Shown one piece after another: positions 3,910 through 44,884 of a DNA stretch of 64,000 nt. The notes under the pieces were generated by a model. That model was given only the letters and a program-made list of their open reading frames with translations, was not told the origin of the DNA and made no database searches. Within the stretch, counting starts at the first letter, position 1, and each line of letters opens with the position of its first letter. Position numbers and translations under genes: made by a program. The DNA comes from Candidatus Nanohaloarchaea archaeon (GTDB lineage Archaea; Nanohalarchaeota; Nanosalinia; Nanosalinales; Nanosalinaceae), in NCBI GenBank assembly GCA_042218075.1, contig JBDGRK010000003.1, positions 1 through 64,000 on the forward strand, given 5' to 3'.

Positions 3910-3998
3910 TGCGGTGTGGGGGACTCGAACCCCCGTTACCACCAAGTTGCGTCTCAAGACTTGGCAAGGTGGTGTCGTAGCCGCTGGACCAACACCGC
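3910..3998 (-). tRNA. tRNA-Gly(GCC) with 17-nt intron at 37/38 (3945-3961)
   Basis: Cloverleaf GCGGTGT...ACACCGCA; anticodon GCC at 3965-3963; canonical bulge-helix-bulge (BHB; TTGC/GCAA helix, 3-nt bulges). Confidence 0.95.
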
Positions 3999-7032: not shown

Positions 7033-7168
7033 GGGCCCGTAGCTCAGCCCGGACAGAGCGAGCGGCTTCGGAACCTCAAGTTTTTCGCCAGAAAACCGGG
7101 GAACAAGAAAATCTTCGATTTTCGCAGAAGACACCGCTAGGTCCAGGGTTCAAATCCCTGCGGGCTCG
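7033..7168 (+). tRNA. tRNA-Arg(TCG) with 61-nt intron at 37/38 (7072-7132)
   Basis: GGGCCCG...CGGGCTCG acceptor; AGCGG/CCGCT anticodon stem; TCG at 7068-7070; CTTC/GAAG splice helix. Confidence 0.93.
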
Positions 7169-32328: not shown

Positions 32329-32520
32329 ATGAAAGGCGAAGTTAAGTTCTTCCACGACAAGAAGAAGTACGGATTTATAGTGACCGAAGATCTGGACGAC
32401 GATCTTTTCTTCCACGTGAGCGATCTCGAAGGAGATTCGATCGAGGAAGGAACTGAAGTCGAGTTCGAGCAGGAAGAAGGCGACAAAGGACCAAAAGCAG
32501 TCGACGTAGTCGTTGCTTGA
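32329..32520 (+). CDS. Cold-shock protein
   Basis: GEVKFF, KYGFI, FFHVS, KGPKA; strong SD AGGAGGTGA. Confidence 0.95.
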   Translation: MKGEVKFFHDKKKYGFIVTEDLDDDLFFHVSDLEGDSIEEGTEVEFEQEEGDKGPKAVDVVVA

Positions 32521-35779: not shown

Positions 35780-37561
35780 TCACTTCTCGTAGTACTCTCC
35801 CTTCTGTCTCTGCTCACGGTCTTTCTGGCTTTCGGGTTTGTTGGCTCTCATCCTTCCGGAATCGGGGTCCTTCCTGAATGTTATTCCAACTTCCTCCAGG
35901 AATCGGTCCATCGCATCTCCGATCTTCTCCGGCTCGGAACTACTTCCCTTCACTCCAGGCTCGCCGCTGAATACCATTCCACGATCAGCGACGTAATCCA
36001 GGAACATCAGGTCGTGGTCGATTACCATTAAAGGTTTCTCAGTCTTCCTCGCGAACTTCTTCAGCATCTTGCCGAGCTCTACCCTAGCCTCAACGTCGAG
36101 GTAGGCAGAGGGCTCATCCAGCAGGTAGACTTCCGCATCCCTGGAAAGGCAGATCGCGATCCCGACTTTCTGGAGCTCTCCTCCTGAAAGATCTTCGAGG
36201 TTGTTTTCGTAGAGCTTCTCGATCCCCAGAGGCTCTGCGATCCTGTTCTCGAACCTCTTCGATTCAATATCCGCATTTTTTGATAGAGCCTCTTCCACGG
36301 TCTCATCCTTGGCCTCAAGGTACTGCGGCTTGTAGGAGATCAAAACATTGGTAGATTCGCCTTCATCCGGCTCTATGCCTCCAGCCATCATCTTTGCGAA
36401 CACGGTCTTGCCGAGGCCGTTCTCACCGAAGATAGCCAGTATCTCTTCCTGATGGAGTTTCCCTTCTCTGGTCTCGAGCTCAAACTCTCCCTGACCGAAA
36501 TCCTTTGAGAAAGAAGGAAACTCAAGCACAGTCTTATTCTGCTCCACCCTGCTTCTCTTTGTACGATCAAACTTGATCTCGTCAGATCGGAAGCGGACAT
36601 TGTCGGAGGGAAGATAGCCCTCAAGGTACCGGTTTATGCCCTCCCTTGTCGACAGAGCGTTCGATACCATTCCGTAACCAGCAGGTTCGCCGTAGAATAT
36701 GTGTATAGAGTCCGATATCAGGTCGAGTGTCGCGAGGTCGTGCTCTACTGCCAGGACTTTTTCATCATCCAGCTTCCTGATCTCCCTGCCTGTCTCCAGT
36801 CTCTGCCCCACATCCAGGAAGGAGGAGGACTCGTCGAACATGTATAGATCCGCGTCATGGAGAAGTGTCCTGGCTATCGCCACCCTCTGGAGTTCTCCCC
36901 CGGAGAGGTTTTCCAGCTGCCTGTCAAGCAGATGACCTAAATCCAGCCTCTCCACCATCTCTTCGGCTTTTCCTCCTGAATCCTGCAGGAAATCTCTCAC
37001 CTTCCCATCGAACACCTCTGGAAGCCTTTCCACCTGCTGTGGCTTATAGGCTGATTCGACCTCGCCCTCCGAGAGAGCCTCGAAGTGGTCCTGGAGCCCT
37101 GTCCCGCGGTACTCCCTGACTATCTCTTCCCATCCGGGAGGACTCTCCCAGTTCCCGAGGTTGGGTTTGATCTCTCCTGACAGGATTTTGAGTGATACCG
37201 ACTTCCCGATGCCGTTCTCCCCGATCATTCCCACGGACCTACCCTTCTCCGGCGTGGGAACCCCGTAAAGCCTGAAGGAGTTCTCGTGGAACTGGTGGAT
37301 CTTATCCCCCTGCTCGAAGGGAAGCTGAATCATCTTGATCGCTCCCTCATGGGGGTAGCGGTTGATCGCCATCTTGTGGGACTCCATCACTTTCTCATCG
37401 TCGATGTGGAGCTCCTCGTTCTCGTCCAGGTAGAATCCTCCATCCTGGCCCGACCTGTTTAGAGGGTCGTACTTGATCACCGTCTCCCTCGCAAGATCCG
37501 GCTCGATCTTCTCCTGGTCTATGGCGACAATGAACTTCTTCGAGTTTCTGTCCGTTGACAT
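35780..37561 (-). CDS. rli: Ribosome-recycling ATPase ABCE1/RLI
   Basis: Two nucleotide-binding domains (GENGIGKS, LSGGELQR; GENGLGKT, LSGGELQK), YKPQ, ITFRKD, RANK. Confidence 0.95.
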   Translation of the reverse strand: MSTDRNSKKFIVAIDQEKIEPDLARETVIKYDPLNRSGQDGGFYLDENEELHIDDEKVMESHKMAINRYPHEGAIKMIQLPFEQGDKIHQFHENSFRLYGVPTPEKGRSVGMIGENGIGKSVSLKILSGEIKPNLGNWESPPGWEEIVREYRGTGLQDHFEALSEGEVESAYKPQQVERLPEVFDGKVRDFLQDSGGKAEEMVERLDLGHLLDRQLENLSGGELQRVAIARTLLHDADLYMFDESSSFLDVGQRLETGREIRKLDDEKVLAVEHDLATLDLISDSIHIFYGEPAGYGMVSNALSTREGINRYLEGYLPSDNVRFRSDEIKFDRTKRSRVEQNKTVLEFPSFSKDFGQGEFELETREGKLHQEEILAIFGENGLGKTVFAKMMAGGIEPDEGESTNVLISYKPQYLEAKDETVEEALSKNADIESKRFENRIAEPLGIEKLYENNLEDLSGGELQKVGIAICLSRDAEVYLLDEPSAYLDVEARVELGKMLKKFARKTEKPLMVIDHDLMFLDYVADRGMVFSGEPGVKGSSSEPEKIGDAMDRFLEEVGITFRKDPDSGRMRANKPESQKDREQRQKGEYYEK

Positions 37562-37598: not shown

Positions 37599-37862
37599 TC
37601 AGAAAAGACCGGAAAATTCTTCTCTTGCCCTGCTCTTTACTTCATCGAATTCCTCGGCTATTTTTTCTCCCTTCTCTGTCCTCTTGCCGTACTCGAGAAT
37701 ATACCTGTATGAACCGGCGCTTGCCGCGGTTACATTGGCTGTACCAATTGCACCGGTACCTGTTTTATGCCCGGCGATTGCACCTAAAGTAAATCCCAAT
37801 GCGTAGTAAGCCCAGATGTATCCGTCTCTTATATCCAGATGTTCTTCGGAGATAGATGACAC
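37599..37862 (-). CDS. Hypothetical small membrane protein
   Basis: 87-aa ORF between two core genes on the same strand. Confidence 0.5.
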   Translation of the reverse strand: MSSISEEHLDIRDGYIWAYYALGFTLGAIAGHKTGTGAIGTANVTAASAGSYRYILEYGKRTEKGEKIAEEFDEVKSRAREEFSGLF

Positions 37863-37865
37863 CCT

Positions 37866-38372
37866 CTACTCAAAGCTCAGGCTGTACTCTTCCTCGGTTA
37901 TCTCCGCGATTATATTCTCAAATTCTTCGACGGAGAGGTTGATCTTCCCCTCGTACTCCTCGTCGACGACAATCTTCTTGCTCTGTCCCTCCGGCGAAAA
38001 GACGGTGTTAATGGATTCAACTTCTGCAGGACTCAGGAGACCCTTGATCGTGTCTATGTCGTCCTCGGCTTTTTCCACTACGCGTATCGATTTCCCTATC
38101 CTGTCGGCAACTTCCTTCACAATATCGCCGCTTCTTCCCACTACTTTTGCGCCGTCTCCCTCGGCCGTCACGATCACGATCACGTTCTCGGCCTCGAAAA
38201 CTTTAAGGATTTCAGAGTCCTTCAGCGAGGCGTATTCCGAGCTGAGATCGTGTAGGATCCTTGAGACCTCTATATCTGTCTCCGTTATCTCTCCGTCCTC
38301 GAGCTTCTCCTCGCACATGCTGCATAGCTCGTCCTCGCTCTTGACGCATACGTTGCAGATTGGAGTCTTCAT
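37866..38372 (-). CDS. Zn-finger + KH-domain protein (archaeal NusA-like)
   Basis: ICNVC...LCSMC; VVGRSG KH loop; IRVVE. Confidence 0.8.
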   Translation of the reverse strand: MKTPICNVCVKSEDELCSMCEEKLEDGEITETDIEVSRILHDLSSEYASLKDSEILKVFEAENVIVIVTAEGDGAKVVGRSGDIVKEVADRIGKSIRVVEKAEDDIDTIKGLLSPAEVESINTVFSPEGQSKKIVVDEEYEGKINLSVEEFENIIAEITEEEYSLSFE

Positions 38373-38425
38373 GTAAAGACGGGTGCTACCAAGAATTAAA
38401 TAGGTGGACGATCGCTGTTCTGGTA

Positions 38426-38569
38426 ATGACTGTATTCGAACTCGAAGATGGAGATCAGGAGATTGGAAGATTGCTTGGAAAGTATGCTGAAGTGAAGGCT
38501 ACTAAAAGTGCTGATGGACCCGGTTATGTAGTAGAATTTTACGCAGAACAGGGATTTTTAGGAGATTAA
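38426..38569 (+). CDS. Small hypothetical protein
   Basis: Short acidic ORF MTVFELEDG... Confidence 0.35.
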   Translation: MTVFELEDGDQEIGRLLGKYAEVKATKSADGPGYVVEFYAEQGFLGD

Positions 38570-39081
38570 TCCCTTATAACTTTCCTGATCAGTTCAAGGG
38601 AATCCAGGAATCCGACTATACCCACCATAAGTACCGCGTAGAAAAGGTAGAAAGAGTTCAGGTAAGTGAGCAGGATTCCAAGTGCCAGGATTCCGATCCA
38701 TACCTTTTCTCCCAGCCTCAGACCATAGTTTTTACTCATTCTGGACGAGATTTCCCTATTCAGTAACATTGCCAATGAGATCGAAGCAAGAGAAAAGAGC
38801 CCGACCAGTCTCGTGACGGAGCTGTGGAGCGAGACAGTGGATACCGCGATCACTGGAACCATGAGATTGCTTACTGATTCGACTACCTTCCTCCATGTAT
38901 TCCTCCCCTCCTTGAGTATCAGCTTCCTGTTGTATCCCAGGATCAGGTAAGCAGCTATAGTTCCCAGTGCTGAGATGAACCCCATTCCTGTATCTGTAAA
39001 CTTCAGCGCGAGGGGAGAAGCCGAAAGTATTATTGATAGGGTTCCGAGAATCGTTATGAAGTAGTTTCTCACAGTTAACAA
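38566..39081 (-). CDS. Membrane protein (possibly degenerate CDP-alcohol phosphatidyltransferase fold)
   Basis: About six TM helices; no catalytic Asp motif. Confidence 0.55.
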   Translation of the reverse strand: MLTVRNYFITILGTLSIILSASPLALKFTDTGMGFISALGTIAAYLILGYNRKLILKEGRNTWRKVVESVSNLMVPVIAVSTVSLHSSVTRLVGLFSLASISLAMLLNREISSRMSKNYGLRLGEKVWIGILALGILLTYLNSFYLFYAVLMVGIVGFLDSLELIRKVIRD

Positions 39082-39109
39082 TCCTGTTCAAGTGTTAAAC
39101 TTTTTCCGG

Positions 39110-39216
39110 TCTGAGAAAATAAAAGAAGATTTAAGACCTCCGCTAAGGGGGGAGGGGAGTGTGACGGTGACCAGAGAGCCTTTTTGACCCTCTGATCCCG
39201 AACACGGAGGTCTTAA
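39110..39216 (-). ncRNA. Structured RNA element in the ftsZ 3' region followed by a U-rich terminator tract
   Basis: 12-bp perfect outer inverted repeat (39131-39142/39205-39216); inner 12-bp hairpin with three G-U pairs on the minus strand; C-rich single strand. Confidence 0.6.
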
Positions 39217-39262
39217 GGGGGTGTGAAAGGGGAATATTAGATAATGGTAAAGTGAAAGGGAA

Positions 39263-40330
39263 TCAGTTCTCGATTACCTCGATTCCCAGGTCGTTGACGT
39301 CTCCGCTGACTTCCGTTTCGTGTTGCTCTTCCACGTCTCCGAGGACGTATGGTGACTCCACGCCTGTCACGATTGAGATCACCTGGAGCTTTCCTTCAAG
39401 CTCATCCTTGACTCTCGCGCCCCAGATCACCTGGGCCTTGTTGTCGAGGTGTCTCTTGACTTTCTGGCCCACCTCGTTGATCTCGTTCAGGGTCAGGTCC
39501 TGTCCTCCAGCGATGTGGATTAGAGCTCCATTCGCTCCTTCGAACTCCACGTCGAGCAGAGGATTGCTCAGCGCCTCGTGGATTGCTTCTTCTCCCTTGT
39601 TGTTGGTGTCGCTCTCTCCGTATCCCACTACAGCTACACCTCCTTCGTTCATGATGGTCTGGACGTCTGCGTAGTCGAGGTTGACGAGTGAAGGTTTTGA
39701 GATCGTTTCAGTCACGCCCTTGATCATCGTTGTAATCAGTTCGTCCGCGACTCCAAAGGCCTGGTCAAGAGGCATGTCTCCAGCAATATCCAGTAAGCGA
39801 TCATTCTCAATCACGATCGCGGTGTCTACGTGCTGTCGCAGCCTGTAGAGGCCATCCTCTGCCTTGCTCATCCTTGCACCTTCAATCTCGAATGGCATCG
39901 TGACTGTTCCTATAACTATGCAGTCCTCCTTCTTCGCGATCTCAGCCAGTACCGGAGCCGCACCAGTTCCTGTTCCTCCGCCCATTCCGGCTGTGAGGAA
40001 AACCATGTCAGCGTCCTTGAAGAGCGATCTGAGTTCAGCCCTGTTCTCTTCGGCCGATCTTGCTCCTTTCTCAGGTTCTCCTCCTGCTCCGAGACCTTTT
40101 GTGAGGTCTCTTCCCACGAGAATTTTTCGATCAGCAGAGCTCATCTCCAGGTGCTGCTTGTCGGTGTTGATCGCGACAGTGTCAGCTCCGTCGACCTCCT
40201 TGTTGTGGATTCGGGTAACCTGGTTGTTTCCAGCTCCTCCTATTCCTACAACAAGGATTCTAGCATCTTTTACATCATCGAGGTTTTCGACTTCGTTTTC
40301 GGATTCGGTATTATCGATTAGGGATTCCAT
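39263..40330 (-). CDS. ftsZ: Cell division protein FtsZ
   Basis: GIGGAGNN, INTD, AGMGGGTGTG, VNLDYADV, IWGA. Confidence 0.98.
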   Translation of the reverse strand: MESLIDNTESENEVENLDDVKDARILVVGIGGAGNNQVTRIHNKEVDGADTVAINTDKQHLEMSSADRKILVGRDLTKGLGAGGEPEKGARSAEENRAELRSLFKDADMVFLTAGMGGGTGTGAAPVLAEIAKKEDCIVIGTVTMPFEIEGARMSKAEDGLYRLRQHVDTAIVIENDRLLDIAGDMPLDQAFGVADELITTMIKGVTETISKPSLVNLDYADVQTIMNEGGVAVVGYGESDTNNKGEEAIHEALSNPLLDVEFEGANGALIHIAGGQDLTLNEINEVGQKVKRHLDNKAQVIWGARVKDELEGKLQVISIVTGVESPYVLGDVEEQHETEVSGDVNDLGIEVIEN

Positions 40331-40345
40331 AGTATGATCACGCGA

Positions 40346-40530
40346 TAGTTATGCCTAACCTTTTTAAAGCGGCATAGCTAACTCTACGATAGAACCCAAA
40401 GCCCAATTTGATACGATACATTCCCCGGATTCAACGCCCAAGTCGAATCCGATAGTCAAACAAACTCGCGCCCAAACGAGTTTGAGTCAACATGTCAGGT
40501 TCGTGCGCCCAAACACGAACATGTAAACTT
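40346..40530 (-). ncRNA. Putative ftsZ 5' leader RNA with four UUGGGC-loop hairpins
   Basis: Loops at 40401, 40436, 40470, 40507 (+ strand GCCCAA), each closed by a different stem; fifth hairpin at 40346-40380. Confidence 0.75.
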
Positions 40531-40554
40531 GTAACCTATAATTTTCTAACCCTG

Positions 40555-40640
40555 TTTATAAAAGTTTGCTAAAACTCGGCTCTCTCGCTGTTCATACCTA
40601 ATGAACACTGAACAGTTCACGCCAGTTCATAACTGTTTAT
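40555..40640 (-). promoter_or_regulatory. ftsZ TATA box and upstream GTTCA/TGAAC operator array
   Basis: TTTTATAAA on the minus strand at about 40555-40563; palindrome TGTTCAT-N5-ATGAACA; GTTCA-like sites at 10-bp spacing. Confidence 0.55.
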
Positions 40641-40671
40641 CAAAAACGTTTTTTCCCTAAAGATCGTTTCA

Positions 40672-41157
40672 CTATAATGTAAAAAAACTGGCCGGTTGAT
40701 AGTTCTCTGCAAAATGCTCTATTCCCTCTTCTGCTCCTGGATCAGGCGATAGTAGCCGGTATGCTTCCAGGTCATCGGGCATAAATACCAGAATGTAATC
40801 GTTATCGTCATTCCATTCCAGATGCAAAGCTTCTCTCGGTAGGTTTCCTCCAACTGCCTCACGCTTCAGCTGATCGAAACTTTCATATTCCCCAGAAAAA
40901 CTGAAATCACATCTTTCCAGGTTCTCCACAGCATCACCTACTATACAGGAAAAGGCTTCCTGTCTCTTCAATAAAGCAGTATATTCATCGCCGTATACCC
41001 GACTATCAATAGAAGCCTCTTCCAGAAGGTCATTTACTTTCCTGGGTTTGGCGACTGAGACTTCTGCACCAGATCCACTCCTATCCAAGTCAGGATTTAC
41101 CCAACCATTAACTTTTTCTCCGTAGTTATCATGGATAGTTTTAGACATTCGCAACAC
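40672..41157 (-). CDS. Hypothetical protein
   Basis: Acidic orphan ORF; start may be ATG 41148. Confidence 0.55.
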   Translation of the reverse strand: MLRMSKTIHDNYGEKVNGWVNPDLDRSGSGAEVSVAKPRKVNDLLEEASIDSRVYGDEYTALLKRQEAFSCIVGDAVENLERCDFSFSGEYESFDQLKREAVGGNLPREALHLEWNDDNDYILVFMPDDLEAYRLLSPDPGAEEGIEHFAENYQPASFFTL

Positions 41158-41204
41158 AAAACATTTCCTGAAGCTTCATATATCTGATCTTTCCTATCCA
41201 AGAT

Positions 41205-41483
41205 ATGGTCGACGTAGAGGAAGTTGAAGATATCGCCGAGAACGCAAGGATCGAACTTCAGGACGGTGAGGCAGAGAAGTTTGCGGAAGAGTTCGAAGAA
41301 ATTCTTGATACTTTCAACACTCTGGAAAAGATAGATACTGAAGACGTTGAACCAGCATTCCATCCGGTAGATACCGATCCCGAGGCCAGAGAAGACGAAG
41401 TAGAGCAAACGCTGGGGATAGAGGAAGTTTTCAGGAATACACAAAATGTGGAAGAGGAACATTTCAAGGGTCCCTCGGTATGA
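41205..41483 (+). CDS. gatC: Asp/Glu-tRNA amidotransferase subunit C
   Basis: IAENARIEL...IDTEDVEP...REDE...FKGP. Confidence 0.92.
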   Translation: MVDVEEVEDIAENARIELQDGEAEKFAEEFEEILDTFNTLEKIDTEDVEPAFHPVDTDPEAREDEVEQTLGIEEVFRNTQNVEEEHFKGPSV

Positions 41484-42067
41484 GTCTACAGGTTTCCAAC
41501 CTGGCGGAAGGGACGGATGATTTCACCGGTAATGTATGGTGCGTGAAGAATGGGGAAACTGTTTTGATCGATGTTGGCACAGGTGATTGCTGGCGGCATA
41601 TAAGGGAGCTTGATACTGTTGACAAGGTTTTCATTACTCATTCCCATTACGATCACGTAGACAATCTACCAAAAGTTGATGACAGGTTCAATCCGGAGAT
41701 ATACGCTTTCGAACCGGAAAACCTTCCAGTGGACTCTAGACGGGTTAAAGATGGGGAGAAAGTTGAAATTTGCAGCCTCGATTTCAGGGTGATCCATACG
41801 CCAGGACATAAAGACGATTCTATATGCATTTACTCGCCCGATAGAAAAGTTTTGTTCGCGGGAGATCTTATCTTCCCGCAGGGCGGCTTCGGCAGGACCG
41901 ACCTCGAGGAAGGTTACAGGGAAATTCTGATACAGTCTATCGAAAAGATCGCGAAAAGGGATGTTGGGGAAATGTATTGCGGTCACGACCCTGCCTCAAC
42001 AGAGAATGTAAATGAAGATATCGAAAAGTCTCTGGAGCAGGCAAGAAAGAGAGAACCGAAATATTAA
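41480..42067 (+). CDS. MBL-fold hydrolase (glyoxalase II-like)
   Basis: THSHYDH, HTPGH, FAGD, GRTD, CGH. Confidence 0.9.
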   Translation: MSLQVSNLAEGTDDFTGNVWCVKNGETVLIDVGTGDCWRHIRELDTVDKVFITHSHYDHVDNLPKVDDRFNPEIYAFEPENLPVDSRRVKDGEKVEICSLDFRVIHTPGHKDDSICIYSPDRKVLFAGDLIFPQGGFGRTDLEEGYREILIQSIEKIAKRDVGEMYCGHDPASTENVNEDIEKSLEQARKREPKY

Positions 42068-42730
42068 TTACAGTTTTTCCAGTAAAACCCTGTGCAGATT
42101 TTCCAGGTTCCTGTAGAGTAAGAATCCGGCAACAATACCTCCGATCAAGACTGCCACAGCGGTCGAAAGGCTATCTATCTGTGTTGCGTAAACCATGAAC
42201 CTGTCCGAGGCCCACCAGCCCAGCATTCCCAGGAAGAAGTTTCTGGGTATCATTCCCACGAAGCTCCAAGTACCGTACTGCTTCCAGTCCATCCTGAAAA
42301 GACCTGCTGAGCCTGAAACAAGTGAGAGCGGTACTACAGGGATTAGCCTGAAGAGGGCCACGTAGTATTTTTCTTTATCCGAATCGAAAAAGTCCTCCAG
42401 TCTGTCGATATCTCTCTCAGATACATCGATCCATTTTCCGTACCTCGAAATTGCGGGTCTGCCGCCGAAAAAGGCCATGGAATAGACAAAGTAAGAGCTG
42501 ATGACCGAGGCGATAGAGGCAGGTATCGAAACAAAGAAGAAAACCTGGATTGACGCGTTCAGCCAAGAATCCGCACTGATTATCAGGTCGGTTGCGCCTG
42601 CGGCCATCGGAATCGCGGGTGAAGGTATCGGAACAATAATTTCCTCGATCACCGCTCCCAACATCACAGCTAAAACCCCATGCTCCGAGATCAACTGGAG
42701 CAGTGTGGTCATCAGGTTTTCAAATACCAT
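42068..42730 (-). CDS. DedA/SNARE-associated membrane protein
   Basis: EEIIVPIPS, GGRP...YGKW, RLIP, SAG. Confidence 0.9.
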   Translation of the reverse strand: MVFENLMTTLLQLISEHGVLAVMLGAVIEEIIVPIPSPAIPMAAGATDLIISADSWLNASIQVFFFVSIPASIASVISSYFVYSMAFFGGRPAISRYGKWIDVSERDIDRLEDFFDSDKEKYYVALFRLIPVVPLSLVSGSAGLFRMDWKQYGTWSFVGMIPRNFFLGMLGWWASDRFMVYATQIDSLSTAVAVLIGGIVAGFLLYRNLENLHRVLLEKL

Positions 42731-42768: not shown

Positions 42769-44244
42769 TTACACAAGTGAAATCAGGTAATCGATGAAGC
42801 CGGAAAGAAAGTCCATGAAACCGTAATTCTGGAGGTCCCCTGAGGTCCTGTTCACAATTATTCTCCGTCCATCAGTACTCCTGTTTCTTTCGGGTACTTT
42901 GATTTCGTTTATCTGGAGTTGCTCAGATGACCTGTCCGGTATTCCGGTATAGTACGGATAATCGTACTTATTTACGTTGTCCAGGCAGTCTTCAAACTTT
43001 TCTCTCGAATCATACTTGCAGGGGGTGAGATCCAGGTGATCAGAAAGAATATTCCACTTTTCCCCTGGTGATTCAATTTTCCTGGATACTTCAAGATCTG
43101 AGTAAAGATCTCTCACCGAGTTGTTGTTCGCGACGTAGTTCCGGATAATCAGGTGCGAGTAGGCGTAACCGAACTGCCTGAAATCCGGGAAATCCTGAGG
43201 ATTCCACCGCTCCATGAAATCCCGATCATTCTGGTAATAGCTCCAAAGCTTCTCTTTACTTCCCTGTGAAGGAACTGTGTAGATATAGGTGGTTCCCTGC
43301 TTCTTAACCCTGAATTTCTTCTCCTCGCCGAAAAGCTCGGCAGGACCCACATCGGTCTTTCCCTGGCTATAGAGTCGATGCTTCATCAGGTATTCGGTGT
43401 ATTCAGCCACTCCCTCATCAAGATACGAGGATTTCGTCCTGTCCCATCGCAGGAACCTGTCGTTTAGCCCGTGAACGGTCTCGTGGGCAAGTATCGGCAG
43501 ATGGTTTTCATCCAGGTCATTCCTGAGAGTTAGAGTTCCCGCAGTGTACTCTCCCGCGCTCCACCTGTTGACGGTCTCGTTGAAGCTTTTATCATCCATA
43601 ACCGCGACAGGGAATTTTTCAAACTGCTGTACCAGTCCCGTGGTTCCGACCGATAGACGGTATGCCTTCTCAGATTTTTCTCGTTTCGGACCGAAAAACT
43701 CGTAGTATTCAGTCTTCTTTCCCTCCCCAAAGTTTACGCGAAAGTTTGTAGGACCTTCGCCGGAGAACCTGAATTCCTCGCCGCGGAAAGAGGTGTTGAA
43801 CCCGAAACCAATCCATCCGGATATCAGATCTTCTACATGGAAAACTCCTGTTGTTTTCTCTCCCTTGAAGCTGGGAATCGAGAACCGCCTGTAATGAAGG
43901 TCGCGGTAGATTTTCTTTGCTTCCCGGTCTATCCTCATCTGTATCTTTACAGTCTCGCGTCTCCTGGGCTCTCCCCTGTTAGTGGTTATAGAAAGACTGT
44001 TACCGTTCTTCTCGTAATCCTCTATCTCACCAAGGCTGTCCTCCACCCTGAGTATCTCCGCATCCTCGGGAAGGTTCCAGCTCAATCTCCATCTTGATAC
44101 CGGGCAGGGATTATTGCATTCAAGCTCTACAGTCGTATTCATCAGTATCTTATCCCGATAGACTTCTCCCCTGTACTGTATCTCAGCCGCTGATAAAGTG
44201 GAGAGAAGGATCAGGACGAGAACTGTTAACGTTTTCCTGTACAT
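42769..44244 (-). CDS. Secreted gluzincin (M1/MA-like) metallopeptidase
   Basis: Signal peptide; AHETVH...LDEGVAEY. Confidence 0.75.
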   Translation of the reverse strand: MYRKTLTVLVLILLSTLSAAEIQYRGEVYRDKILMNTTVELECNNPCPVSRWRLSWNLPEDAEILRVEDSLGEIEDYEKNGNSLSITTNRGEPRRRETVKIQMRIDREAKKIYRDLHYRRFSIPSFKGEKTTGVFHVEDLISGWIGFGFNTSFRGEEFRFSGEGPTNFRVNFGEGKKTEYYEFFGPKREKSEKAYRLSVGTTGLVQQFEKFPVAVMDDKSFNETVNRWSAGEYTAGTLTLRNDLDENHLPILAHETVHGLNDRFLRWDRTKSSYLDEGVAEYTEYLMKHRLYSQGKTDVGPAELFGEEKKFRVKKQGTTYIYTVPSQGSKEKLWSYYQNDRDFMERWNPQDFPDFRQFGYAYSHLIIRNYVANNNSVRDLYSDLEVSRKIESPGEKWNILSDHLDLTPCKYDSREKFEDCLDNVNKYDYPYYTGIPDRSSEQLQINEIKVPERNRSTDGRRIIVNRTSGDLQNYGFMDFLSGFIDYLISLV

Positions 44245-44296
44245 GCGCAGTGTTTGCCGGGGAAGGAATAAAAGAACTTTTACAGTCATAATCGGT

Positions 44297-44884
44297 ATGT
44301 CGGTACTTTCTGATAGGGATATTGAAAGACTCATAAGGCATCATAACGCTGTAAGAGTCGATGATGGACCTGAACCCAACTTCGACCTCCAGCTCGGTCC
44401 TTCTTCATTCGATTTGAGGCTGGGTTACGAGTTTGGAATACTTGAGACTAGGAGGATAGAGGCAATTGACACACGAGACATGGAGGAGTATTCGGATATC
44501 CAGGAAACCGTGAGAAAATCGCCGGAGGAGGGCATGGTGGTCCACCCGGGTGAATTCGTTCTGGGGACAACACTGGAAATTCTGAAGGTTCCTGACGACA
44601 TGATAGCAAGGATAGAGGGCAGGAGCAGTTACGCCAGGCTTGGACTGATACCTCATGCGGCTGCAGGTTTTGTTGACGCGGGATTTGAGGGCGCTATTAC
44701 CCTTGAAATCCAGAACCTCGGCAACGTGCCGATCACCATCTACCCTGAGGACAGGTTCTGCCAGGTGGCATTCGAAAGGATGACCTCTGAGGCGGAGAAT
44801 CCTTACGGCGAGAAAGAAGATTCGAAGTACATGAACCAGGAGGGCGCCACCGGATCAAAGCTGGACAGCGAGAAGAGGGAGTAG
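44297..44884 (+). CDS. dcd: dCTP deaminase
   Basis: LSDRDI, SSFDLRLG, EGRSSYARLG, GFVDAGFEGAITLE. Confidence 0.95.
   Translation: MSVLSDRDIERLIRHHNAVRVDDGPEPNFDLQLGPSSFDLRLGYEFGILETRRIEAIDTRDMEEYSDIQETVRKSPEEGMVVHPGEFVLGTTLEILKVPDDMIARIEGRSSYARLGLIPHAAAGFVDAGFEGAITLEIQNLGNVPITIYPEDRFCQVAFERMTSEAENPYGEKEDSKYMNQEGATGSKLDSEKRE

Follow-up and report, generated by a model that had tools for sequence, protein, structure and literature searches.

In bacteria, the CsrB and RsmZ sponge RNAs and the leaders bound by the bacterial protein CsrA carry many hairpins with unrelated stems and one G-containing loop word, GGA in the context A(N)GGA. Iron-responsive elements (IREs) are hairpins with a CAGUGN loop and a bulged C; they are read by IRP, five of them may occur in one mRNA, and they control translation or stability. 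To our knowledge, Archaea have few known cis-regulatory RNAs, none of which serves cell division. Regarding the ftsZ2 genes of archaea, one study reports the regulator CdrS from all major groups of archaea but DPANN (PMC7439475), and another suggests post-transcriptional control of haloarchaeal ftsZ2 (PMC8303175). Here, we describe an array of hairpins that share the loop UUGGGC and lie directly upstream of an ftsZ gene in a 64,000-nt stretch (the window; positions 1 to 64,000 of contig JBDGRK010000003.1) from a Candidatus Nanohaloarchaea archaeon. The array is a conserved RNA structure on the sense strand of ftsZ.

All coordinates refer to the window, and the hairpins and ftsZ are all read on its minus strand. 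The ftsZ gene (39263-40330, 355 aa; Pfam Tubulin and FtsZ_C; TIGR00065, 399 bits) is preceded, upstream of its ATG at 40330, by 341 nt without a credible open reading frame (ORF). In transcript order, this leader contains hairpin 1 (40499-40520; 8-bp stem, loop at 40512-40507), hairpin 2 (40461-40484; 9-bp stem, loop at 40475-40470), which has the highest sequence conservation of all units, hairpin 3 (40426-40451, or 40425-40452 for 11 bp; 10-11-bp stem, loop at 40441-40436), and hairpin 4 (40396-40411; weak 5-bp stem, loop at 40406-40401), with loop-to-loop spacings of 37, 34, and 35 nt. The site of hairpin 4 is variable among relatives, which carry 0 to 3 additional G-loop hairpins there. 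An initial annotation of this DNA had proposed the four hairpins, a TATA box upstream of them, and a fifth hairpin before ftsZ, and all of its coordinates and sequences proved correct on re-reading. For comparison, we used 70 genomes of the phylum, representing one order and five families (f1 to f5, the window belonging to f1). Loci of ftsZ were collected from 30 related genomes, 39 nanohaloarchaeal public records, and 9 genomes of other families; removal of 17 duplicates left 52 distinct upstream regions, besides which the 9 loci of the other families were read by eye.

The array resembles CsrA/RsmA targets in its unrelated stems, shared loop word, and multivalent design. It differs from them in its loop word, which is UUGGGC or a variant of it, in being tied in cis to one gene, and in having neither a CsrA gene nor a match to the Rfam models of CsrB/RsmZ: a search with PF02599 gave no matches in the 92%-complete assembly, whereas the control search was positive in E. 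coli, B. subtilis, and T. maritima. The trinucleotide GGA is absent from the main-type loops (UUGGGC, CGGGCA, GGGC) and occurs, in a G-rich context, only in the GGGA type found at 8 of the 52 loci. With the IRE clusters of animals, the array shares repeated hairpins, a fixed 6-nt loop, free stems, and a location in an untranslated region; unlike them, it has another loop word, lacks the C-bulge, and belongs to another domain of life. The cdrS-ftsZ2 arrangement of Halobacteria and other archaea likewise places a dedicated element directly before an FtsZ2-type gene, but cdrS encodes a ribbon-helix-helix protein and is co-transcribed with ftsZ2, whereas the array is a non-coding RNA of about 200 nt without a conserved ORF. 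The longest ATG-initiated ORFs in the 52 leaders range from 0 to 59 aa and are inconsistent, and 9 leaders have no ATG at all, in keeping with the earlier statement that no credible ORF lies between the TATA box and ftsZ. T-box leaders combine a specifier codon with a T-box sequence, to which the acceptor end of the tRNA pairs, and a downstream terminator/antiterminator; the locus has neither a T-box match in Rfam nor a terminator hairpin with a U-tract.

The array also belongs to no known Rfam family, another point raised by the initial annotation. Searched with Rfam 15 at E values up to 10, the region 40200-40800 gave only a chance snoRNA match inside ftsZ (12.7 bits versus an 80-bit threshold); the whole window at gathering scores gave two tRNAs only, and the loci of nine relatives gave no match at E values up to 0.1. 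Searches of the literature on nanohaloarchaeal ftsZ leaders and non-coding RNA, supplementary files aside, gave no description of the element. The array is thus a previously uncatalogued structured RNA family, whose function we infer; as a covariation-backed sense-strand structure directly upstream of one orthologous gene, it has the general form of a cis-regulatory leader.

G-loop hairpins are present in all 52 upstream regions, so the loops are conserved in relatives, and arrays are seen in all five families. At least two sense-strand copies of TTGGGC occur upstream of ftsZ in 27 of the 30 loci from the related genomes and in 44 of the 52 regions, the other 8 carrying UGGGA or GUGGGAC loops; the complement GCCCAA is found once in all 30 loci and once across all 52 regions. 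Counting stems of at least 5 bp, there is one hairpin in 2 leaders, two in 5, three in 13, four in 21, five in 10, and six in 1, and at least three G-loop hairpins are found in 45 of the 52. A scan that ignored loop sequence (stem of at least 5 bp, loop of 4 to 10 nt) collected 1200 hairpins from the 52 regions; their commonest loop was TTGGGC (79), next to GGGC (34), AAAGG (26), CGGGCA (20), and GTGGGA (7), and loops containing GGG numbered 210, against a single loop containing CCC. Within the leaders, 125 of 167 TTGGGC copies are loops on stems of at least 5 bp, compared with 3 of 120 elsewhere in the window's own genome. Among the 9 loci read by eye, 8 have arrays with YUGGGC(A) loops, and the single f5 genome has three UUGGCG hairpins. 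One public bin labelled as a marine bacterium (Colwellia; L039) includes a contig whose nanohaloarchaeal ftsZ is 87% identical and whose leader equals that of L010; this contig is probably mis-binned.

Covariation was evaluated in 20 genomes with uniform loops. Because a whole-leader MAFFT alignment misaligned hairpin 1, this hairpin was counted by script on anchored windows: 161 of 200 stem cells pair, compared with 111 ± 4.9 in shuffles (0 of 1000 as high), pairs 1 to 5 are 100% paired, and pairs 2 to 4 from the loop show three to four pair types each. In hairpin 2, the closing pair is followed by five pairs that do not vary in any of the 20 genomes; the closing pair itself is U-G (16 genomes) or U-A (4 genomes), and the outer pairs covary from A-U to G-C. 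Hairpin 3 has 91% of its cells paired, with compensatory changes in 6 of 10 pairs and a covariation score of 0.414 versus 0.165 when shuffled (0 of 500 as high; slid controls, 0.004 to 0.079). RNAalifold recovered three hairpins de novo, each with a 6-nt loop, and 12 of their 22 pairs are compensatory. The stems therefore not only differ around an invariant loop, as had been noticed in the single sequence, but covary, hairpins 1 and 3 beating all shuffles.

The pairing is also strand specific. G-U pairs make up 137 of the 1309 stem pairs, and the mean stem is 7.6 bp long (Watson-Crick plus G-U) on the sense strand versus 4.9 bp when read from the opposite strand, which upholds the earlier remark that G-U pairs work only on the sense strand; the leaders contain 287 GGG versus 9 CCC in total. 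Downstream of hairpin 4, a small conserved hairpin, UUCUA-3 nt-UAGAG (40382-40394), has 88% of its cells paired in 45 relatives, and its one-sided changes from U-A to U-G fit the sense strand. Covariation, G-U pairs, stem lengths, and the GGG/CCC skew exclude a double-stranded DNA site or a cruciform. We are highly confident that the structure and its conservation are real.

The clustering of the loop word is far from what chance would give. TTGGGC occurs 11 times on both strands of the window, whereas shuffled sequence gives 23.3 ± 4.6 copies; four of the 11 fall on one strand within a single 112-nt stretch (40401-40512). In the 1.10-Mb assembly, TTGGGC/GCCCAA is among the rarer hexamers, with 124 copies (hexamer median, 437; rank, 170 of ~4190), and a Poisson estimate for finding at least three more copies inside 112 nt gives 4e-8 for each site, or about 5e-6 over the 124 sites. 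The four local copies are enclosed by stems of 8, 9, 11, and 5 bp; among the other 120 genomic copies, only three have a stem of at least 5 bp (6, 5, and 5 bp). Related TTGGG words are also scarce genome-wide, and avoidance of the loop word is not required as an explanation. The fold of the single sequence is not decisive: the sense strand reaches -65.0 kcal/mol, whereas shuffles average -55.8 ± 4.1 (z, -2.2) and 5 of 200 do equally well, with hairpins 1 to 3 and their 6-nt loops in the centroid, and the antisense strand reaches -50.2 kcal/mol, yet with a z of -3.2. It is the comparative data that decide.

The array is restricted to one ftsZ paralogue. A covariance model built from hairpins 1 to 3 and searched in the 70 genomes gave 38 matches in 37 genomes, one each except in the single genome whose ftsZ is split into two pieces, which has two; 37 of the 38 are directly upstream of ftsZ, and the last is in a genome without an ftsZ match at the threshold used (E of 1e-110 or better, at which eight genomes had no match). 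The 33 genomes without a model match include all six of genus g2 (a GGGA-type genome being one of them) and most of those of the other families; where the loci of model-negative genomes were fetched and read directly, variant arrays were present. Triplets of TTGGGC spaced 20 to 45 nt apart occur at 51 places in 29 genomes, 50 of them at ftsZ, compared with 4 for a reversed-pattern control, and the one place away from ftsZ has no hairpins. In the window's own genome, neither a scan for TTGGGC hairpins nor a looser one for hairpins with GGG[CA] loops found a second cluster; singleton TTGGGC hairpins of 5 to 6 bp lie in or beside ORFs without pattern, and the motifs of the 3' block, including UUCUA-N3-UAGAG, are unique, with no copy elsewhere in that genome. 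A genome-wide regulon of such hairpins, as suggested earlier, is thus not borne out, arrays and long-stem copies being found only at ftsZ.

The second FtsZ paralogue (contig C36, 369 aa; L093, 1751-2860) has a plain 68-nt upstream spacer with a TATA-like box and no hairpins, and no small ribbon-helix-helix gene was found upstream of it. It is preceded by an ORF (L093, 1029-1682) that, by its sequence, is a putative FKBP-type peptidyl-prolyl isomerase. Because M. jannaschii FtsZ homolog 1 matches this paralogue better (415 bits, compared with 340 bits for the leader-bearing ftsZ), the leader-bearing gene is probably the FtsZ2-type paralogue, an assignment drawn from match scores and not from a phylogeny.

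The loops change in concert. Each genome uses UUGGGC or a lineage-wide variant (UGGGA, GUGGGA, CGGGCA, or UUGGCG) that is common to all of its hairpins: the 8 GGGA-type loci have 18 GGGA hairpins and no GGGC hairpin, whereas the 44 GGGC-type loci have 153 GGGC hairpins and 3 GGGA hairpins. The switch between the two types requires at least three changes on the FtsZ tree, a single-gene tree on which the number is uncertain. Because the loops change together, including in the UUGGCG lineage, a shared sequence-specific reader is suggested; that all loops of one genome are read by the same factor, and change along with it, would explain the pattern best. The concerted change seems to favor an evolvable sequence-specific partner, such as a protein or a fast-evolving RNA; it speaks against conserved partners of the rRNA or tRNA kind and equally against a role of structure alone or of G-quartets.

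We therefore consider the following arrangement. The distal TATA box would transcribe the hairpin array as a 5' leader of about 200 nt of the FtsZ2-type ftsZ mRNA, the 5' half of this leader being the array itself (four hairpins here, one to six in relatives, mostly three to five). Stems would be free to vary as long as they pair, and the loops would display one G-rich word, so that one sequence-specific factor acting in trans, in all likelihood a protein and possibly an oligomer, could dock repeatedly; its binding would set the amount of FtsZ through mRNA stability or translation. Judged from the sequences, the probability that the array is such a protein-binding regulatory leader, a multivalent platform for one sequence-specific factor, is about one half; transcription as a leader, protein binding, and the regulatory outcome are the parts of it that we infer.

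As candidates for the reader, the initial annotation had named the nearby KH or cold-shock proteins. The KH gene downstream of ftsZ matches the NusA-like family PRK06418 over its full length and is present in 65 of the 70 genomes; it is linked to ftsZ only in f1, lies on another contig in f2, f3, and f4, and is about 5 kb away in f5. As a general archaeal NusA-like protein with ftsZ linkage in one of five families, it was rejected as a dedicated partner. The single cold-shock gene (32329-32514) is 8 kb from the array. In the nut sites of phage lambda, short leader hairpins (boxB) have loops that are read by a protein acting with NusA, and the leader hairpins here, followed in f1 by a NusA-like KH gene downstream of ftsZ, recall that system; unlike it, the array shows no boxA/boxB likeness, its synteny with the KH gene is not phylum-wide, and there is no link to transcription elongation.

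Whether the hairpins are part of the ftsZ mRNA depends on the promoter used. TATA-like hexamers peak 26 to 35 nt before start codons in the window's own genome; therefore, most of its mRNAs would be leaderless. At the array lies a distal TATA box, P1 (TTTTATAAA, 40555-40563); a box of this kind is present 203 to 351 nt before the ATG in 49 of the 52 upstream regions, and in 43 of these 49 it lies 38 to 57 nt (median, 46) from the 5' base of hairpin 1. The TATA box upstream of the hairpins is thus a conserved feature, and because its distance to hairpin 1 is tight while that to the ATG varies, the array appears tied to the distal promoter. Going by the TATA offset of the genome, the long leader is predicted to start at 40529-40535, so that the transcript would begin about 9 to 15 nt before hairpin 1. 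Runs of at least five T, an archaeal termination signal, occur in 3 of the 52 leaders versus about 12 expected by chance (our own estimate); therefore, nothing should stop distal transcripts before ftsZ. The lack of a terminator between the distal TATA box and ftsZ makes the long leader most likely, with the array presumably transcribed as part of the ftsZ mRNA.

Several observations weigh against a protein-binding leader of this kind. The transcription start and the long leader itself are predictions; the search for a partner produced no identification, CsrA being absent and the KH protein a general NusA-like one; and a factor dedicated to one mRNA would be unusual, single sites elsewhere being indistinguishable from chance. 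Fewer than four hairpins with stems of at least 5 bp are found in 20 of the 52 leaders. The hairpins are more than 65 nt from the start codon, which is not sequestered, and no route to translation control is evident. Finally, an A-rich box, TTTAAAAA (40361-40368), is conserved in all families and lies 36 to 48 nt before the ATG in 37 of 45 f1 loci, a plausible promoter distance, so that ftsZ may be made mainly from a short-leader transcript without the hairpins. This box is enclosed by the inverted repeat (40346-40380) that the initial annotation had called a fifth hairpin before the ftsZ start: the inverted repeat is there, but it surrounds a conserved TATA-like box at promoter distance, which that annotation had not considered. 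The block is either an RNA hairpin or domain, or a proximal promoter (P2) with a flanking operator, or both.

From the same box follows the rival explanation that survives best, namely two transcription units, in which the distal promoter would make a separate array RNA and the proximal TTTAAAAA box a short-leader ftsZ mRNA. The array RNA would then sequester a G-loop-binding factor, as a sponge or decoy, or its transcription would interfere with the proximal promoter. The phylum-wide box near the usual TATA position speaks for this explanation, as does the relative L055, in which another TATA-like word, TTATAAA, occupies the same place; the stem enclosing the box covaries weakly and has no more than 66.5% of its cells paired (an alternative pairing reaches 64%), and an operator palindrome is an equally good reading of it. 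However, 49 of the 52 leaders have no run of at least five T between array and box, so that readthrough into ftsZ is expected; the position and orientation of the array before ftsZ are kept in all genomes examined, which is needless for a sponge acting in trans; and conservation downstream of the box goes far beyond the needs of a promoter. We regard two units as doubtful.

The structure might also act alone, either as a 5'-terminal stabilizer against 5'-to-3' exonucleases or as an ion sensor, with K+-dependent G-quartets assembled from the GGG loops of four hairpins in the very K+-rich cytoplasm of a salt-in halophile. Hairpin 1 would indeed lie about 10 to 15 nt from the 5' end, at least four GGG tracts are present here, and the near absence of CCC leaves the G tracts without an internal pairing partner. 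A canonical intramolecular G-quadruplex has four G tracts of at least three with loops of about 1 to 7 nt; the four GGG tracts are 34 to 37 nt apart, each in a hairpin loop, and one lineage, with UUGGCG, has no GGG. The array therefore does not fit the canonical form, although quartets formed non-canonically between loops are conceivable. A role without a partner is unlikely on further grounds: all six loop letters, not just GGG, are invariant in hairpins 1 to 3 of the 20 genomes, the variants switch together within each genome, 20 of the 52 leaders have fewer than four hairpins, and a plain stabilizer needs no conserved loop.

Kissing of the loops with another RNA, such as the anticodon loop of a glycine tRNA, or with a small RNA, is improbable. 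A GGN glycine codon is present in each variant (UUGGGC, CGGGCA, GUGGGA, UUGGCG), a CCCAA anticodon loop would be the complement of UUGGG, and the UUGCCAA anticodon loop of the tRNA at 3910-3998 is complementary to the UUGGC of the UUGGCG variant. On the other side, neither Rfam (16 tRNAs) nor ARAGORN (23 tRNAs) detected a tRNA-Gly(CCC), though both perform so poorly on this intron-rich genome that absence is not shown, and GCC is the only glycine tRNA recognized; GCCCAA clusters in the genome only at the acceptor stem of a tRNA-Lys; a concerted change of loops facing a conserved tRNA is hard to explain, and no logic linking a glycine tRNA to ftsZ is evident. The window has two intron-bearing tRNA genes, at 3910-3998 (minus strand) and 7033-7168 (plus strand); the former has its anticodon loop (glycine, GCC) followed by the intron and was misread by ARAGORN as having a four-base anticodon. 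The tRNA-Lys(CUU) gene (G000, contig C10, 62344-62571) has a 98-nt intron and, to its left and right, additional copies of its acceptor-stem word, giving four TTGGGC/GCCCAA within 230 nt; the flanking copies may stem from a duplicated end or allow leader and trailer to pair.

An element acting at the level of DNA, be it a set of transcription-factor palindromes, a cruciform, a replication origin, or a site of recombination, is very improbable, for although the hairpins are inverted repeats in DNA and lie in a promoter region that is divergent with gatC in relatives, the half-sites differ within a genome and change by compensatory substitutions around a conserved, non-palindromic center, on the other strand the 137 G-U pairs would turn into A-C mismatches, with stems falling from 7.6 to 4.9 bp, and no Orc1/Cdc6 was found among eight ORFs (37599-42067) scanned against Pfam and/or NCBIfam or among the ORFs at 35780-37561 and 42068-42730 named from their translations, the ORF at 42769-44334 being left unclassified.

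Other features surround the leader. A partly palindromic cluster of GTGAACAG / CTGTTCAC-like boxes (40585-40640, minus strand, read by eye) lies 20 to 80 nt upstream of the distal TATA box, and the printed sequences have such boxes at the same place in L002-L023, L026, L085, L090, and L092, which belong to several families; transcription factors of the ftsZ promoter may bind at these candidate sites, which fall within the divergent gatC-ftsZ promoter region of relatives. A 161-aa ORF (40672-41157, minus strand) between gatC and the leader has no Pfam or NCBIfam match and is found only in this genome. In relatives its place is taken by gatC, divergent and starting 240 to 500 nt from the ftsZ ATG, and the ORF was accordingly rejected as a regulator. 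At the 3' end of the leader, a Shine-Dalgarno-like GTGATC (40336-40341) lies 5 nt upstream of the ATG. Both GGTGAT and GTGATC are enriched 10 to 19 nt before start codons in this genome, and 26 of the 52 leaders have a Shine-Dalgarno-like word no more than 22 nt from the ATG. GTGATC would be complementary to the 3' end of 16S rRNA; no 16S rRNA gene is present in the 92%-complete assembly. The first 9 to 12 nt of the ftsZ coding sequence (ATGGAATCC..., 40319-40330) are near-identical across most of the phylum, beyond what the protein needs, and might belong to the regulatory element or to the ribosome-binding region.

It is possible, though we put it forward only tentatively, that the Nanohaloarchaeota, which are without CdrS, control their FtsZ2-type gene by a dedicated G-loop array, peculiar to them, that counts molecules of one co-evolving RNA-binding protein. 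If this is true, the counted protein could be a division protein or FtsZ itself, coupling FtsZ synthesis to the state of the cell, and the array would be the first cis-regulatory RNA class for archaeal cell division and an archaeal counterpart of the systems of CsrA and IRP targets. Confined to one essential gene and compact enough for pull-down, probing, and reporter assays, hairpins 1 to 3 (about 100 nt) would be a practical bait for an archaeal sequence-specific RNA-binding protein, and the lineage-wide switches of the loop word amount to a natural specificity-swap experiment. In these ultra-small symbiotic archaea, which lack CdrS, a regulator reported to be absent from DPANN (PMC7439475), the array would give a handle on the timing of division.

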